A stretch of DNA of 21,980 nucleotides from a virus (IMGVR_UViG_2700989365_000011), one strand, 5' to 3'. Numbered from the stretch's first letter, positions 1,084 to 20,428 are shown. Numbers and translations: made by a program. Notes: generated by a model from the sequence alone, not told the origin.

Positions 1084-2912
1084 GCAATCATCACTCCATA
1101 GAAACCAGCGATAGTTCTCTCAATAATCCGTCTGTGGACGCCAGCATCAATTAACGATTGAATCTCCATCACCTGCTCCAGAGAAGGCAACGGGATTGAA
1201 TTCAATTCATAGGCCGAAACAGCAACACTTCCGCTTATACACCTGAACGCCCGATCGACAACATGCGAATTAAGTAGCATATCAATAACATCAGGGCGAA
1301 CCGCAGAGAACAATCCGTTTGAATATACAATATTAATATGGTTTTCAACTACTACGCCACCAGTTTCATCTATAAATCCCTGAGGTAAAATTGCCGCTAA
1401 AATCCTTCTGTCCTGTTCCTTCGATGTTGTCCGCTGAACAAGCACACATTCAGATTTTGTCACAAGGAAACCCTGTTGTGGGGTTATATCGATATAGGGA
1501 ACATGATTTTTTCTGTCTGCACTAAAACGAAAACCAGCTGAAGTTATTGATTCCGCCCAGACTAATGGGTAGCTATTTTTTCCTTTCGTCGTACGCAACT
1601 GCGACTTAAATCGATTCCAGACTAACTGACCTGTAGAGACTGAGTATCCCAGATCAGCTAAACGCGTAGACATCTGTTTTAATACATTAAGAAAACAGGC
1701 ATCATCTTTAACGCGTGGCAAAAGCCACGTTGCTCCACCTTTTTCTATATCAACATTACCTATTTTCTCAATTTTTGCTTTGTTCAACCCCTTAGGGACA
1801 AGTGAGGATACCTGGGCCCGAACTTTATGTTCTCCCGCCTTGAATGCTGTCAACATTGTTTCCTGGAGAACATCGTCAAAGACCCCATCCCTGTCAGTGA
1901 CGAAATCAAGGGCATACGGAGTAGTTTTTTCGGTCAAAAGGGTTCGCAGCGCGGTGAAATACTGCCCACCAAGAAAAGAAGTTGGCGTAAGAAATGCAAT
2001 AACTCCTGTTTTCTCTTTAACCATGCGAACAGCTAAGTCGGTGAACAATCCATATAGATTTGCATGACCAAATAACGAACGAGAATATTTTTCTCTCGTT
2101 TTAATATCGAGAGTGACACGTCCGTAAGGCGGATTCCCTACCACAAGATCATAACCAGAAAATTTATCTTGCTGAAGCGCATCAGCAACAATAATTGTAT
2201 CTTCAGGCAATCTACGTTTTACCTTTACACATAGTGGCATTAGTACAGATTCGAGCAATACCAAACTCATCCAAGCCGCAAATGGATCGATCTCTATCCC
2301 CTTTAAACGACGACTGATTCTCCTCAACATCCATTCAGGGGAAGACCCCTTGTCTTTTTTTAACATTCGAATGGCTACTGGTGCCAAAAATGCACCGCCA
2401 CCACACGCAGGATCAATAACCGATGCATGAGAAAAATCAACACCAGACTTTTCAGCCAGGTCCAAGAGACGCGCTACCAAAGGTGGGGGGGTATAGTAAG
2501 CCCCCAATTCCGAACGGTAAGCGGATGGCAGCATTACCGTATAAATTGACCCAATCAGATATCCAGCGTCCTCCGCCGGAAATTGAGCAATAAGCTCACC
2601 TGTTCGTTCAGCGAGCTCGCGTGCATCACATGGAATGTCTTCTATGTAAACAGTGTGCGGTACTGCCCTCATTTTAATGCTGCTTTTTTGCTTTTTTGCA
2701 AGGGTATCCCAATATGCAGCTACGATGCTGAAGCAGTATGAGCGGGCATGCATCAACCTTGACTGCCCGGTTTTGTAATTGCCCGCATAACCTTTGGCCA
2801 TGGCTTTACAAGTTTGATATCTTTCCAGATTAGAAAACTCATTATCTGTAAAAAAATCAAAATGTTGCACATTCATAATGTAAAATCCTAATGTATCAAA
2901 CATGCGGGCCAT
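1080..2912 (-). CDS. N6-adenine DNA methyltransferase, gamma class
   Basis: 610-aa ORF with AdoMet-binding motif I (DPACGGGAFL) N-terminal to catalytic motif IV (VVGNPPYG). Motif order I then IV is the gamma-class arrangement; the long C-terminal region is consistent with a target-recognition domain. Confidence 0.85.
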   Translation of the reverse strand: MARMFDTLGFYIMNVQHFDFFTDNEFSNLERYQTCKAMAKGYAGNYKTGQSRLMHARSYCFSIVAAYWDTLAKKQKSSIKMRAVPHTVYIEDIPCDARELAERTGELIAQFPAEDAGYLIGSIYTVMLPSAYRSELGAYYTPPPLVARLLDLAEKSGVDFSHASVIDPACGGGAFLAPVAIRMLKKDKGSSPEWMLRRISRRLKGIEIDPFAAWMSLVLLESVLMPLCVKVKRRLPEDTIIVADALQQDKFSGYDLVVGNPPYGRVTLDIKTREKYSRSLFGHANLYGLFTDLAVRMVKEKTGVIAFLTPTSFLGGQYFTALRTLLTEKTTPYALDFVTDRDGVFDDVLQETMLTAFKAGEHKVRAQVSSLVPKGLNKAKIEKIGNVDIEKGGATWLLPRVKDDACFLNVLKQMSTRLADLGYSVSTGQLVWNRFKSQLRTTKGKNSYPLVWAESITSAGFRFSADRKNHVPYIDITPQQGFLVTKSECVLVQRTTSKEQDRRILAAILPQGFIDETGGVVVENHINIVYSNGLFSAVRPDVIDMLLNSHVVDRAFRCISGSVAVSAYELNSIPLPSLEQVMEIQSLIDAGVHRRIIERTIAGFYGVMIA

Positions 2913-3126
2913 AACATCTCATGGTGGCGCATAGCAAACTGGCCCGAAGAATATCACGCACCAAGTCGATCTCATAACCCGTTATGACAATAAATCTTTG
3001 TAGCTGAACTCACTTGGTGATTTGTCAATCATTCCTGGCCTCCAGTTCGTCCTGAATCTCTTTATCGAGTTCACCGTATTTGTTAGTCCTCATCACTCAC
3101 GACTTGACTTCCAGAAATAACCTTGA

Positions 3127-6614: not shown

Positions 6615-7040
6615 TCAATGTACTGCCACAGCATTTCCTGCCGGGCCACCACGGTTCATCTGATTGAAACCGGCGATTGCCACTGCGACAAAATCATCAG
6701 CGTCTCTCACCAGTCGTTCATGCGTCTCCACCAGTTCCCGAAAATAAGCTGAACTGTGGCTGCGCATTCGAGCCACCAGCGGAGGTGGCATTGCCCTTTC
6801 GATCGCAGGTAACAACGCCTGAATTTTTTCAACAGCGTCAGGGGTGTCTTTATCCAGCCAACGGAAAATCTTTTGGGTGTTGAGATAAAGCGTGTTGTGC
6901 TTGCTGTCGTTATGCAGAACCGGAAACGTCATTCCCAGTTCGAAATAAACCCTGGTTATTTCAGCTGCCGGAACTTTTTCACCGTCCGGATGCGCCCAGG
7001 CTTTCATCGCCATGCGGATGTGTTCATGCTTGATTTTCAT
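6615..7040 (-). CDS. YdaT-like protein (cII-position gene of Rac-type prophages)
   Basis: 141 aa starting MKIKHEHI..., the same N-terminus as the Rac-copy gene at 13062-13484. ATGA overlap with the upstream Cro-like gene. Confidence 0.7.
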   Translation of the reverse strand: MKIKHEHIRMAMKAWAHPDGEKVPAAEITRVYFELGMTFPVLHNDSKHNTLYLNTQKIFRWLDKDTPDAVEKIQALLPAIERAMPPPLVARMRSHSSAYFRELVETHERLVRDADDFVAVAIAGFNQMNRGGPAGNAVAVH

Positions 7041-7300
7041 GAATCAACCCCCGCCGATGGTTGTGTGTTAGCCTGAAACTCAGCAGGCAAGCCGTCAGTT
7101 GGGTTGGGGTAGGTTTTACTGTCAATCTCATGTGGGGTCACCACCCATCCCGTTGCTTCACACCAACGTAATATTTTTTCTCCTGTAAGTTTTGCACGCC
7201 CCGTTATAACGTGGCTGACCATCCCTTGGGATGCGCCAACAATCTCAGCAAATGAACTCTGGGTTATATGAAAATGATGCAAATATTCTCCAAGATTCAT
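7037..7300 (-). CDS. Cro/YdaS-like HTH regulator
   Basis: 87 aa from the ATG at 7300; the listed ORF start at 7327 is a TTG. Divergent from the cI-like repressor across an operator-containing intergenic region. Confidence 0.7.
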   Translation of the reverse strand: MNLGEYLHHFHITQSSFAEIVGASQGMVSHVITGRAKLTGEKILRWCEATGWVVTPHEIDSKTYPNPTDGLPAEFQANTQPSAGVDS

Positions 7301-7336
7301 AATCCGCCCTATGTGATGTGTTACCAATGCATAATT

Positions 7337-7376
7337 AATAGCACTGTTATTTTTAAAAGTAAATAGTGATACTATT
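7337..7376. promoter_or_regulatory. OR-like operator pair between Cro-like and cI-like genes
   Basis: Two 15-bp palindromes, AATAGCACTGTTATT (7337-7351) and AATAGTGATACTATT (7362-7376), centres 25 bp apart. Confidence 0.45.
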
Positions 7377-7411
7377 TCAAAGTGATTAGCAATCTTATTA
7401 GAATTGGATGT

Positions 7412-7912
7412 ATGAAAAGAAAATCATTGTCAGACACCGACCTCAACGCCGCCAGAAGACTGAAAGAAATCTGGATGGCAAAGAAATCTCAGTTGGGATT
7501 GACTCAGGAACGTGCGGCGGAAATTATGGGGTTTTCAACACAAGGGGCGGTAAGTCACTACCTAAATGGTCAAACCCCACTAAACCTTGAGGCTGTTCTA
7601 AAGTTTGCTGGCTTACTGAAAGTTCCCCCTGAGTCAATCAGGCCAGACATGGTAGATTTGCTGCAAATTGCAAGGATGTATTGTCGAGAACCACAGCAAG
7701 ATAACATAGTCGCATTACCAGCAGACACAGAACAAACAGAGGATGAACTACCGTTTGCCGTAGAGCCGATGGAACGAGATTTAATCCATACGTTCAGAGC
7801 TTTTCCGAAAGAAGATCAAGAACACATGCTTCAGGAGATGAAAGATAAAAAAGAATCAATGGATCGTACGGTTGCGCGGTGGTTAGCTGCACAAAAAGGC
7901 CGTCGCGCCTAA
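7412..7912 (+). CDS. cI-like XRE-family HTH repressor without a recognisable C-terminal S24 peptidase domain
   Basis: 166 aa from the ATG at 7412 (MKRKSLSDTDL...); a GTG at 7382 is an alternative start. HTH region LTQERAAEIMGFSTQGAVSHYLNG. Immediately upstream of the toxin-antitoxin pair, as in repressor-antitoxin-toxin operons. Confidence 0.75.
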   Translation: MKRKSLSDTDLNAARRLKEIWMAKKSQLGLTQERAAEIMGFSTQGAVSHYLNGQTPLNLEAVLKFAGLLKVPPESIRPDMVDLLQIARMYCREPQQDNIVALPADTEQTEDELPFAVEPMERDLIHTFRAFPKEDQEHMLQEMKDKKESMDRTVARWLAAQKGRRA

Positions 7913-7931
7913 ATCAGAGGAGATATGTAAA

Positions 7932-8126
7932 ATGAGTACAGTCCTTTCCCCAATGGTTTCAGAATTTGAGACAGTTGAGCAAGAAAATAGTTACAACGAA
8001 TGGCTGCGGGCCAAAGTAGCAGCAAGCCTCGCGGATCCCCGCCCGGCGATTCCGCATGATGAGGTAATGGCGGAAATGGAACAAATTATTGCCCAAATTG
8101 CTGCTGCAACTCACAGAGGTGAATAA
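7932..8126 (+). CDS. Antitoxin partnering the ParE-family toxin (PaaA/ParD-like)
   Basis: 64 aa, GAGGAG Shine-Dalgarno 8 nt upstream. Its stop overlaps the toxin ATG (TAATG at 8124-8128). Confidence 0.65.
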   Translation: MSTVLSPMVSEFETVEQENSYNEWLRAKVAASLADPRPAIPHDEVMAEMEQIIAQIAAATHRGE

Positions 8127-8416
8127 TGTTACCCGTTTTATGGCTACCATCTGCTCGTGATGATTTGCGCCAGATCGTAGCCTACATAGCTAAAGAAAAT
8201 CCCGCGGCAGCACGCAGAATGAAAATTCGAATTGAAACATCCGTTTTGCCGCTCACAGAGCATCCTTACCTGTATCCTCCAAGCGAGCGAGTTCTTGGTC
8301 TTCGTGAAATTGTAACTCATCCTAACTACATCATCCTTTACCGAGTAACAGCATCAAGCATAGAAGTAGTAAATATTGTGCATTCTCGAAGACAGTATCC
8401 AGGCAAAAACAGTTAA
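8126..8416 (+). CDS. parE: RelE/ParE-family type II toxin
   Basis: 96 aa with the characteristic C-terminal pattern ...IILYRV...IEVVNIVHSRRQ. Translationally coupled to the upstream antitoxin. Confidence 0.8.
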   Translation: MLPVLWLPSARDDLRQIVAYIAKENPAAARRMKIRIETSVLPLTEHPYLYPPSERVLGLREIVTHPNYIILYRVTASSIEVVNIVHSRRQYPGKNS

Positions 8417-8434
8417 TTATTCCCGCCGACAGAA

Positions 8435-8455
8435 CCACCTTAGGGTGGTTTTTTC
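8435..8455 (+). terminator. Rho-independent terminator after the toxin gene
   Basis: CCACC-TTAG-GGTGG hairpin followed by a T tract. Confidence 0.7.
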
Positions 8456-8472
8456 TTGCCCCAACAAAAAAC

Positions 8473-8515
8473 AATAGCGATGCTATTTACATCAAAAAAA
8501 AATAATGATGCTATT
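8473..8515. promoter_or_regulatory. OL-like operator pair upstream of the ydaF-like operon
   Basis: AATAGCGATGCTATT (8473-8487) and AATAATGATGCTATT (8501-8515), the same 15-bp motif family as the sites at 7337-7376. Confidence 0.45.
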
Positions 8516-8696
8516 GTTTCAGGCGTCAACCCACCCCGCCCCACAGAATGCAGGGCAATACTTCGAGTTACCAGACAGTGGTCAGGGGTTAAGTAGCCAG
8601 CCCGAGGCGTAAGAACATGACGGCAGGGTTCAATCTTTAACTATGCAGCAGGTTTTTTGTTCCGCCACCCCGGCGTTAAGGGGAAATGAGGTCAGC

Positions 8697-8849
8697 ATGG
8701 ATACTATCGATCTTGGCAACAACGAATCTCTGGTGTGCGGCGTGTTCCCTAACCAGGATGGAACGTTTACCGCCATGACGTATACCAAAAGCAAAACGTT
8801 TAAAACCGAATCTGGCGCGCGTTGCTGGTTAGCCAGAAACACTGACTGA
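8697..8849 (+). CDS. YdaF-like small protein (homolog of Rac ydaF at 14670-14825)
   Basis: 50 aa (MDTIDLGNNESLVCGVFPNQDGTFTAMTYTKSKTF...), about 85% identical to the Rac-copy YdaF. GAGG Shine-Dalgarno upstream. Confidence 0.7.
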   Translation: MDTIDLGNNESLVCGVFPNQDGTFTAMTYTKSKTFKTESGARCWLARNTD

Positions 8850-13061: not shown

Positions 13062-13484
13062 TTAATGAACAATGACAGAATCGTCGGAAGACCCGCCGCC
13101 GCTGAAATGCGCTTTCCGGTAAACGGCTTGGACTGCATCATCATGCGCATCAATTGCCGTACTTAACGCTTCCTGCGCCGCCAGTAATGCACGGCGTTCC
13201 AGGGTATCGAAGATGCAGAGTCGGTGACGCAGCTCGCGCGGAAGGATTGCCAGAATTGCTGGGATCAGCTTCTGAATTTTTTCTCTTTGCGTTTTCGTTT
13301 CACCTTTCAACCAACGGTGATAGATATTCTGCTGATTATTCCAGTCCTTGCCTGGTACCAGGGGCAATTCGCCGCCCCCCTGGCGCAGATATTCTTCAGT
13401 AATGGCATTGGCTACCCATGCCTGCCCTTTTTCGGCTGCCAGGGCTAACAACACTGACTCGATGTGCTCATGCTTGATTTTCAT
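13062..13484 (-). CDS. ydaT: YdaT-like protein
   Basis: 140 aa starting MKIKHEHI...; ATGA overlap with the upstream gene. Symbol assigned by synteny. Confidence 0.65.
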   Translation of the reverse strand: MKIKHEHIESVLLALAAEKGQAWVANAITEEYLRQGGGELPLVPGKDWNNQQNIYHRWLKGETKTQREKIQKLIPAILAILPRELRHRLCIFDTLERRALLAAQEALSTAIDAHDDAVQAVYRKAHFSGGGSSDDSVIVH

Positions 13485-13735
13485 GAATCAACTCCCATCA
13501 GCTTTTTCGTAGTAGTTTTATTTCTGCCAATAGTTAAAATTACATCAGCAGAAAATAATCCGTTTGATGCATGAGCGATTTTTTCAGCGTAATTTGTTTC
13601 GCCGGTATATTCTGTGCGAGGCAATTTTCCGTTATCCATCCATTTGTAGATTGCTCTTTGGCTGACACCACAAACGTCGGCCACAACAGAAACGCGAACA
13701 GTTTTGATTACATCTTCAAGTGTTTTCTGGTTCAT
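13481..13735 (-). CDS. ydaS: Cro/YdaS-like regulator
   Basis: 84 aa from the ATG at 13735 (MNQKTLEDV...). The longer listed ORF begins at 13807 and would overlap racR. Symbol assigned by synteny; start uncertain. Confidence 0.55.
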   Translation of the reverse strand: MNQKTLEDVIKTVRVSVVADVCGVSQRAIYKWMDNGKLPRTEYTGETNYAEKIAHASNGLFSADVILTIGRNKTTTKKLMGVDS

Positions 13736-13759
13736 ATCACCCTCACAATGTGAACTTTG

Positions 13760-13790
13760 AGTACATGCTATAACAGAACTGACAGTACAT
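13760..13790. promoter_or_regulatory. Candidate RacR operator half-sites in the ydaS-racR intergenic region
   Basis: AGTACAT at 13760-13766 and 13784-13790 (24-bp spacing); the same heptamer recurs downstream of racR. Confidence 0.35.
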
Positions 13791-13796
13791 TCAAGA

Positions 13797-14234
13797 GTGA
13801 ATATCATTGAACTTATGGTTCATGAAGATAAAGCGCGTAAAGAGTTCGCCAGTAGGCTTGCGCTAGCCTGTGAAAACGCTGGTTATGAACAACATGGAAG
13901 GCAGGCAGAAATTGCCCGTCGAATGAAATTAACACCAAAAGCGGTTAGCAAATGGTTTAATGGCGAAACAATTCCTCGCCGAGAGAAATTAAGGGAATTA
14001 GCAACACTCATTGGAACAACACCAACCTATCTTTTGGGAGAGGATACAGAAGAAAGTGGACAGGTACGTTTCTATCAGGAGTTAAATCCAAGACAAAAAA
14101 TCATCATTGACCTTCTGGACGAGCTCCCTGACAGTGAGACAGATGAACTTTTAAAAACTCTTGAGGAGAAAAAACAGAAGTACAATGCAATTTACGAAGA
14201 GCTAGCACGAAAGAAAAAACAAAAAGCCTCTTAA
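13797..14234 (+). CDS. racR: XRE-family HTH repressor (Rac repressor position)
   Basis: 145 aa from the GTG at 13797, or 139 aa from the ATG at 13815. HTH region GRQAEIARRMKLTPKAVSKWFNG. No S24 peptidase domain. Symbol assigned by synteny with ydaG/ydaF/sieB. Confidence 0.65.
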   Translation: MNIIELMVHEDKARKEFASRLALACENAGYEQHGRQAEIARRMKLTPKAVSKWFNGETIPRREKLRELATLIGTTPTYLLGEDTEESGQVRFYQELNPRQKIIIDLLDELPDSETDELLKTLEEKKQKYNAIYEELARKKKQKAS

Positions 14235-14309: not shown

Positions 14310-14350
14310 ATGTACTTATAGTACTTTACATCAATGAACACAAAGTACAT
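14310..14350. promoter_or_regulatory. Candidate operator cluster downstream of racR, upstream of the ydaG leader
   Basis: ATGTACT (14310-14316, inverted), AGTACTT (14320-14326) and AGTACAT (14344-14350). Confidence 0.35.
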
Positions 14351-14524
14351 TATATACCTACCAACCCACCCCGCCCCACAGAACGCAGGGCAATACTTCG
14401 AGTTACCAGGCAGTGGTCAGGGGTTAAGTAGCCAGCCCGAGGCGTATGAACATGACGGCAGGGTTCAGATTTTGCAGTGCAGCAGGTTTCAGTTCCGCCA
14501 CCCGGCGTTAAGGGGAGAGATAAG

Positions 14525-20052: not shown

Positions 20053-20247
20053 ATGAGATATGACAATGTTAAACCATGTCCATTTTGTGGTTGTCCATCA
20101 GTAACGGTGAAAGCCATTTCAGGATATTACCGAGCGAAGTGTAACGGATGCGAATCCCGAACCGGTTATGGTGGAAGTGAAAAAGAAGCACTCGAACGAT
20201 GAAATAAACGAACCACTGGAAATAATAATGGAGGTGTTCATGTATAA
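20053..20247 (+). pseudogene. ralR: ralR (restriction-alleviation protein / type I toxin) interrupted by an in-frame TGA at 20200-20202
   Basis: Reads MRYDNVKPCPFCGCPSVTVKAISGYYRAKCNGCESRTGYGGSEKEALER then TGA. The same frame continues NKRTTGNNNGGVHV to a TAA at 20245-20247 that overlaps the ydaC ATG, so a 64-aa ancestral ORF is evident. Confidence 0.6.
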
Positions 20248-20428
20248 AATTACCGCCACTATTGAAAAGGAAGGTGGCACTCCTACTAACTGGACAAGAT
20301 ATTCAAAATCTAAACTAACGAAATCAGAATGCGAAAAAATGCTCTCAGGTAAAAAAGAAGCAGGCGTTTCCAGAGAGCAGAAAGTAAAACTGATAAATTT
20401 TAATTGCGAGAAACTTCAGTCCTCGTGA
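20240..20428 (+). CDS. ydaC: Rac prophage small protein (ydaC position)
   Basis: 62 aa from the ATG at 20240 (MYKITATIEKEGGTPTNWTRYSK...), GGAGG Shine-Dalgarno 5 nt upstream. Symbol assigned by synteny. Confidence 0.6.
   Translation: MYKITATIEKEGGTPTNWTRYSKSKLTKSECEKMLSGKKEAGVSREQKVKLINFNCEKLQSS

Follow-up and report, generated by a model that had tools for sequence, protein, structure and literature searches.

Four palindromes around a repressor–antitoxin–toxin operon are the probable operators of a lambdoid immunity switch

This work deals with a stretch of viral DNA of 21,980 bp (IMGVR_UViG_2700989365_000011; the whole stretch is called the window below), in which four copies of a 15-bp dyad bracket an operon for a 166-aa repressor (7412-7912, + strand), a PaaA-type antitoxin and a ParE-type toxin. 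We consider it very probable that these palindromes serve as operators in a lambdoid immunity switch and that the repressor is the protein that binds them. What is observed directly comprises the sites with their statistical significance and conservation, their association with a single DNA-binding domain and their overlaps with predicted promoters. An earlier note on this DNA, made from the sequence alone, had proposed a lambda-like layout (right operator [OR], cI, accessory genes, left operator and promoter [OL/pL]), with a toxin–antitoxin (TA) pair inside the immunity region and the palindromes as the likely regulon of the cI-like repressor. The gene order agrees with this proposal, the Cro-like gene and a YdaT-family gene diverging to the left and the repressor, PaaA and ParE genes, a terminator and a DUF1391 gene following to the right. 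The layout is further supported by the gene content, by the promoter overlaps and by the precedent of prophage CP-933P, and the putative regulon by a motif that follows the DNA-binding domain of the repressor and is absent from heteroimmune relatives. The arrangement itself has already been published for CP-933P; the window carries a heteroimmune version of it with an undescribed specificity, and what appears particular to its member is a lambda-CI-type DNA-binding domain paired with a 15-bp operator.

All four dyads are found exactly where the earlier note had placed them: site 1 (OR1-like) at 7337-7351 (AATAGCACTGTTATT; 21.7 bits with a weight matrix of the family), site 2 (OR2-like) at 7362-7376 (AATAGTGATACTATT; 19.9 bits), site 3 (OL2-like) at 8473-8487 (AATAGCGATGCTATT; 23.2 bits) and site 4 (OL1-like) at 8501-8515 (AATAATGATGCTATT; 19.2 bits). 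The pattern it had given for them, AATAGY-N3-RCTATT, needs a correction, since the sites at 7362 and 8473 match it exactly, whereas those at 7337 and 8501 are each one base off, having T instead of C at position 11 and A instead of G at position 5, respectively. Judging from the site variants of related loci, a better consensus is the perfect palindrome AATAGCA-N-TGCTATT. Two exact matches to the initial pattern are observed in the 21,980 bp against 0.00 expected, and four matches with at most one mismatch against 0.12 expected, a number reached in 0 of 100 dinucleotide shuffles. The motif is not frequent at random in the window, and the scan for further copies that had been suggested, run across these 22 kb, returned only the four sites and no other copy with one mismatch or fewer. 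Scored with the matrix built from related loci, the four sites reach 19.2 to 23.2 bits, the next best position of the window 10.4 bits, and shuffled windows a mean maximum of 10.4 bits and an overall maximum of 18.1 bits.

Both pairs of sites are embedded in predicted promoters. Within the 111-bp region between the repressor and Cro-like genes, the two strong dyads lie over the predicted hexamers of PR and next to PRM. PR (7335-7363, - strand) consists of a -35 box TTTACT (7363-7358), a 17-nt spacer and a -10 box TATTAA (7340-7335); site 1 spans the spacer and the first 4 nt of the -10 box, and site 2 overlaps the -35 box by 2 nt and adjoins the -35 box of PRM (7376-7404, + strand; TTCAAA, 17 nt, TAGAAT; 9 of 12 in the promoter scan). 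At the other end of the operon, predicted PL (8486-8517, + strand) joins TTTACA (8486-8491) and TATTGT (8512-8517) by a 20-nt spacer; site 3 shares 2 nt with its -35 box, and site 4 spans the spacer and runs 4 nt into its -10 box. PR and PL, which we placed by sequence reading and by homology with PL933P, are alike over about 45 bp including the -35 box and the spacer, sites 3 and 4 on PL mirroring sites 2 and 1 on PR. The transcripts of PR and PL are predicted to start at about 7328 (- strand) and about 8524, respectively. Moreover, PL occupies the same position relative to a shared leader as the experimentally active PL933P. The centre of site 2 (7369) lies 42-43 bp upstream of the predicted PRM start (about 7411/7412), and OR2 of lambda sits at about -42 relative to PRM. 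This predicted start falls on the ATG of the repressor, and the mRNA of the repressor is probably leaderless because the -10 box TAGAAT of PRM ends 7 nt before that ATG; the segment from this box through the ATG is conserved in 20/20 distinct OR variants. Leaderless mRNAs are also described for PaaR2 and lambda cI (PMC8630535). Between sites 3 and 4 stands a run of A (8494-8502), which is 9 long here and 5-8 long where the repressor is identical or nearly so. With its length, the PL spacer varies between 16 and 20 nt and the distance between the OL sites between 24 and 28 bp among loci; the window has a spacer of 20 nt (16-19 nt in close relatives) and OL sites 28 bp apart instead of 25 bp. 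This could have arisen by slippage, through the decay of a cryptic prophage or from an error in homopolymer sequencing.

The repressor combines a lambda-CI-like N-terminal helix-turn-helix (HTH) domain with a PaaR-type C-terminal domain. Residues 2-81/90 match the N-domain of lambda CI (phmmer against PDB: 1LMB, 1RIO and 3BDN; E 3e-9 to 1e-8). In the alignment with 1LMB, the N-terminal arm KKK of lambda faces KRK of the repressor, and E34/D38, the positive-control patch of lambda CI, face E33/E37. The recognition helix starts with TQ and that of lambda with QS, a difference that fits a different operator sequence. The C-terminal part is 56% identical to PaaR1 (Sakai ECs_1069) over 64 residues (103-166; E 6e-23) and 52% identical to PaaR2 (Sakai ECs_2279) over 44 residues (123-166; E 5e-15). 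Pfam gives only HTH_3/HTH_31 and no S24 peptidase domain in the repressor; with no such peptidase and a PaaR-type C-domain, RecA-mediated cleavage is not expected. About 22% of the residues differ between lineages, and the N-terminal arm and residues 27-58 (the HTH) are nearly invariant.

Conservation of the sites was assessed by a repressor-based search of viral contigs (IMG/VR), which yielded 51 loci, 44 of them with a repressor 77-100% identical to that of the window; the 4-5.5 kb of each of these loci were scanned for the motif. Site 2 is present at -50 from the repressor ATG in 44/44 loci, as are site 3 at +1048 to +1061 and site 4 at about +1075, and site 1 occurs at -75 with at most one mismatch in 42/44, the remaining 2 carrying a second change at position 5. 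Nowhere else in the scanned DNA of the 44 loci does the motif occur. Across 39 distinct site variants, positions 1-4 (AATA) and 12-15 (TATT) are invariant and positions 6-11 variable. The GTTATT arm of site 1 is the same in all 44 loci, and site 2 has invariant arms around five central bases that come in 10 variants. For sites 3 and 4, the invariance of the arms is partly built in by an extraction pattern that required them; sites 1 and 2 were extracted at fixed offsets, and the scan of the 44 loci detected all four sites without arm bias. Every lineage keeps T at position 11 of site 1, a departure from the consensus that suggests tuning or a constraint of the promoter, not drift. In the alignment of the region behind the terminator (OL), conservation is confined to both sites and the hexamers TTTACA and TATTGT, with variable flanks and a variable inter-site spacer.

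Among 5,426 complete E. coli genomes, about 70 carry this immunity type, the best of them 96% identical across the region, and a repressor and a Cro-like protein of identical sequence, named only as HTH proteins, are common in Shigella sonnei. No relatives of the repressor were found in one-genome-per-species contigs, and no isolated phage of the phage collection has this immunity region, one partial match spanning the TA part. Scanning viral contigs with AATAG-N5-CTATTTACA selected 120 contigs, nearly all with single chance matches in AT-rich DNA; the layout of two plus two sites (25-bp pairs about 1.1 kb apart) was met only in contigs already in the 51-locus set, with no new relatives. Six site sequences were looked for in the papers searched, none of which contains any of them.

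Some loci share the surroundings of this switch but not its DNA-binding domain. Seven loci (L048-L054), as well as Sakai Sp4 and Sp12, have homologous surroundings but another repressor N-domain and another Cro-like gene, and the motif of the window is absent from all of them. L048, which is of the PaaR2 type, has a YdaT 86%, a PaaA 80% and a ParE 68% identical to those of the window, and its repressor aligns in the C-domain only; in L050, the repressor is 36% and the Cro-like protein 39% identical. YdaT is 75-87% identical across related loci, L048 included. The Cro-like protein is 83-87% identical in motif-bearing loci, whereas it finds no match in L048. Each of these immunity types has repeats of its own at both places, namely GTTTAGTAA-type repeats in Sp12/CP-933P and again in L048, the palindromes AAAACTGT/ACAGTTTT at OR and PL in Sp4/CP-933M and ACACTT-type repeats in L050. 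No GTTTAGTAA-type repeat stands in the intergenic regions of the window. From these comparisons, the motif travels with a cassette made of the Cro-like gene and the repressor N-domain, not with YdaT, the repressor C-domain or the TA pair, as is classical for heteroimmunity among lambdoid phages.

Rac prophage, which makes up the remainder of the window, offers a further comparison. The absence of the motif from the Rac copy, claimed by the earlier note, is borne out by the lack of any match with one mismatch or fewer in the Rac part; the AGTACAT repeats said to replace it there are enriched, with 5 copies in the window against 1.4 expected and 4/5 of them in two Rac intergenic regions. These copies lie at 13760-13766, 13784-13790, 14310-14316 (- strand) and 14344-14350, i.e. 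as a pair 24 bp apart between racR and ydaS and again after racR, which is the same OR/OL logic with another specificity. As a separate observation on the relatives, L048 and L049 carry at 2321-3125 two complete PaaR-type repressor genes in tandem before paaA-parE, the first of the PaaR2 type and the second of a type with a C-domain 68% identical to that of the window. We had considered this second C-domain match in L048 as a recombination scar, and rejected the idea when the listing of open reading frames showed a complete second PaaR-type repressor gene.

Homology and geometry suggest how such a switch may operate. Dimers of the repressor would bind the four sites through their lambda-CI-type N-terminal HTH domain. 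Sites 1 and 2, which cover the -10 box with spacer and the -35 box of PR, would turn off the operon for the Cro-like protein, YdaT and replication, and sites 3 and 4 would act likewise at PL to turn off the ydfA-type early-left operon. From site 2, about 42 bp upstream of its own promoter, the repressor probably stimulates PRM, like lambda CI bound at OR2. Its C-terminal domain of the PaaR type, responsible for the octamer of PaaR2, would permit cooperative binding of adjacent dimers and a loop of about 1.1 kb between OR and OL that would enclose the repressor–antitoxin–toxin operon. In this operon, the TA pair takes the place of lambda rexAB and is co-transcribed with the repressor. The Cro-like protein probably binds these sites too, in the opposite order of preference. 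When the repressor is abundant, it may down-regulate its own gene through a weak third site within PRM. The candidate for this site (OR3-like, 7385-7399, ATTAGCAATCTTATT) lies within the PRM spacer with its centre 23 bp from site 2, scores 9.8 bits and ranks 6th of about 22,000 window positions and 3rd in the intergenic region. The strong sites are two at OR and two at OL; this weak candidate stands at OR, and OL has none.

Several points weigh against this interpretation. The candidate third site, notable within 111 bp, is at chance level across the whole window and is not established, and lambda has three sites per operator where only two strong ones each are found here. The strict promoter scan called PRM, but neither PR nor PL. 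Given the 20-nt spacer and the 28-bp spacing, PL and the cooperativity at OL may be impaired in the window. Finally, OR is conserved near-completely from site 1 to the ATG, so that conservation does not tell its operators from promoter elements, and at sites 1 and 4 the right arm runs into the -10 hexamer, whose constraint may partly explain the conservation of these sites.

In another explanation, the dyads are mere promoter sequence of two related promoters, PR and PL deriving from one another, with no regulator bound. The alignment of both promoters over some 45 bp and the overlap of the arms with the hexamers would be expected if this were so. Yet each site is dyad-symmetric, the arms outside the hexamers (the left AATAG arm of sites 2-4) are invariant around variable centres, and every heteroimmune relative swaps in another dyad while the layout is kept. 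We regard such a promoter-only origin as distinctly unlikely. The palindromes might also be bound by the Cro-like protein alone (encoded at 7037-7300), with the repressor recognising some other sequence. The Cro-like gene co-varies with the motif exactly like the repressor N-domain, and on this account comparative data cannot tell the two binders apart; but the HTH region of the Cro-like protein is homologous to residues 29-99 of the repressor (34% identity, E 3e-7), repressor and Cro have common operators in lambda, 434, P22 and CP-933P, and neither intergenic region contains any further repeated dyad, which makes binding by the Cro-like protein alone very improbable. Even less can be said for the sites as autoregulatory operators of a PaaA-ParE complex. 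Classical type II TA operons do autoregulate through palindromes in their own promoters, but PaaA2 has no DNA-binding domain (PMC8630535), L048 and L050 keep PaaA (77-80% identical) and ParE (64-68%) and yet lack the motif, and sites 3 and 4 stand behind the TA genes, on a different promoter. That AT-rich palindromes arose here by chance has a practically negligible probability, single matches being common in AT-rich viral contigs (96/120 of those selected by the half-pattern hold just one), but not four where 0.12 are expected nor a paired 25-bp layout about 1.1 kb apart that is confined to related contigs.

Taking the four palindromes as operators of the repressor, we put forward a broader and more tentative scheme, which is possible but falls short of being probable. 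The PaaR C-domain would be a portable oligomerisation module that replaces S24 on a lambda-CI-type domain, giving an SOS-blind CI. Whole cassettes (Cro-like gene, operators and repressor N-domain) would be exchanged between constant flanks, one formed by YdaT and the other by the C-domain, the addictive PaaA-ParE pair and the conserved PL leader. A loop of about 1.1 kb held by two plus two sites would surround the addiction module, and the variable A-run of PL, with its spacer of 16-20 nt, would adjust the early-left operon or shut it down.

The other genes of the region complete this picture. The Cro-like HTH gene (7037-7300, - strand; 87 aa) is a putative functional analogue of Cro/YdaS with a weak match to HTH_3 (20.5 bits, below the Pfam cut-off), and the YdaT-family gene (6615-7040, - strand; Pfam PF06254, 5e-9), an analogue of CII, is the second gene of the PR operon. 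At the junction of both lies a YdaT box (7030-7047, TTGATTTTCATGAATCAA), an exact match to TTGATT-N6-AATCAA, which PMC9986795 gives as the binding site of YdaT. A second exact box, identical to TTGATTTTCATGAATCAA, is found in the Rac part at 13474-13491, at the same cro-like/ydaT junction. On the other strand, the PaaA-type antitoxin (7932-8126, + strand; PF21217 PaaA2, 3e-23) follows the repressor after 19 nt and is followed by the ParE-type toxin (8126-8416, + strand; PF05016, 1.8e-17) with a gap of -1 nt. The toxin terminator of the earlier note (8431-8458, + strand), an intrinsic terminator of the repressor–TA operon and analogue of t_imm, is confirmed by folding (hairpin AGAACCACC/GGUGGUUUU at 8431-8452, -15.1 kcal/mol, z = -2.9, with a U-run after it) and is conserved in all lineages; the strict promoter/terminator scan did not call it. 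The first gene of the PL operon is a ydfA/ydaF-like DUF1391 gene (8697-8849, + strand; PF07151, 3e-28).

Ahead of this gene, the PL transcript has a conserved leader (8527-8690, + strand) with about 90% column identity across five otherwise unrelated immunity types, Rac included. Copies are found in the window at 14362-14520, in L055 at 7175-7349 (- strand) and in L176 at 46645-46805; directly after the PL-type promoter, these about 150 nt are better conserved than the neighbouring genes, and about a dozen induced E. coli phages carry them without annotation. RNAalifold gives two domains with three compensatory pairs, a weak covariation. An Rfam search of the leader matched no family, and none of the papers searched contains its sequence. 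A putL-like RNA as in HK022 was considered and rejected, nhmmer and short-word blastn giving no similarity. The leader may be a cis-acting RNA of the ydfA-dicB/kil operon. Further downstream, an IS1 transposase gene (PF03400, 9374-10137) truncates the PL operon and is followed by a run of 11 N from 10127; the juxtaposed prophage pieces may reflect an IS-mediated rearrangement or a scaffold join. The Rac part also encodes the antitoxin small RNA RalA (20246-20424, - strand; Rfam RF02694, 225 bits).

The discovery value of these results is modest because the architecture itself is already published. They provide an operator that can be tested (AATAGCA-N-TGCTATT) and a map of the promoters of an immunity type common in Shigella sonnei, whose repressor is labelled in databases only as "helix-turn-helix domain-containing protein", and they add a fourth natural specificity to the PaaR1/PaaR2 family. 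Besides, as the DNA-binding domain is lambda-CI-like, the structure-function work on lambda (recognition helix, N-terminal arm, positive-control patch) becomes applicable to a switch of the CP-933P type.

Among known systems, the paaR2-paaA2-parE2 system of CP-933P/Sakai Sp12, with its divergent ydaS-ydaT, was reportedly described by Hallez in 2010. It resembles the window in gene order and orientation, in PaaA and ParE following the repressor, in YdaT and its box, in the lack of an S24 domain, in a terminator followed by PL and the same conserved leader, and in dyads at both OR and PL. The N-domain of PaaR2 is of another type (PDB 7NKV), unrelated to that of the window, which matches lambda CI, and the Cro-like protein is unrelated in sequence. 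The operators differ as well, since CP-933P has GTTTAGTAA-type 18-bp palindromes, with four inverted repeats and three 'operators' each at OR and OL, and the window AATAGCA-N-TGCTATT with two sites at OR (possibly a third) and two at OL. In CP-933P, PaaR2 and YdaS bind the intergenic region in electrophoretic mobility shift assays and protect it from DNase I (Jurenas et al. 2021, PMC8630535), and both repress PR, PRM and the PL located after parE2, about 100-fold in gfp fusions, PRM being activated by low PaaR2 levels (PMC8630535). PaaR2 is octameric and has no peptidase motif, and the locus is bistable and addictive (PMC8630535).

Compared with lambda, the window has a homologous N-domain (E 3e-9) including the arm and acidic residues at E34/D38, adjacent sites about 24-25 bp apart, a promoter-distal site centred about -42 from the repressor promoter, accessory genes co-transcribed with the repressor and a second operator on PL. 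It departs from lambda by operators of 15 bp instead of 17 bp and of different sequence, by a PaaR-type C-domain in place of the S24 peptidase, by a TA pair in place of rexAB, by YdaT in place of CII and by a shorter distance between OR and OL, about 1.1 kb against about 2.3 kb. The paaR1-paaA1-parE1 system of CP-933M/Sakai Sp4 (ECs_1069-1067) has the same layout and leader and a C-domain 56% identical, but another N-domain and the palindromes AAAACTGT...ACAGTTTT at OR and PL. Finally, the RacR/YdaS/YdaT region of Rac (13062-14234 in the window) has a divergent pair of repressor and Cro-like genes, an identical YdaT box, repeats in the intergenic regions on either side and, downstream, the common leader, and the DicA/DicC-dicB operon of Qin is presumably comparable; Rac differs from the switch described here by its AGTACAT repeats and by having no TA pair after the repressor.

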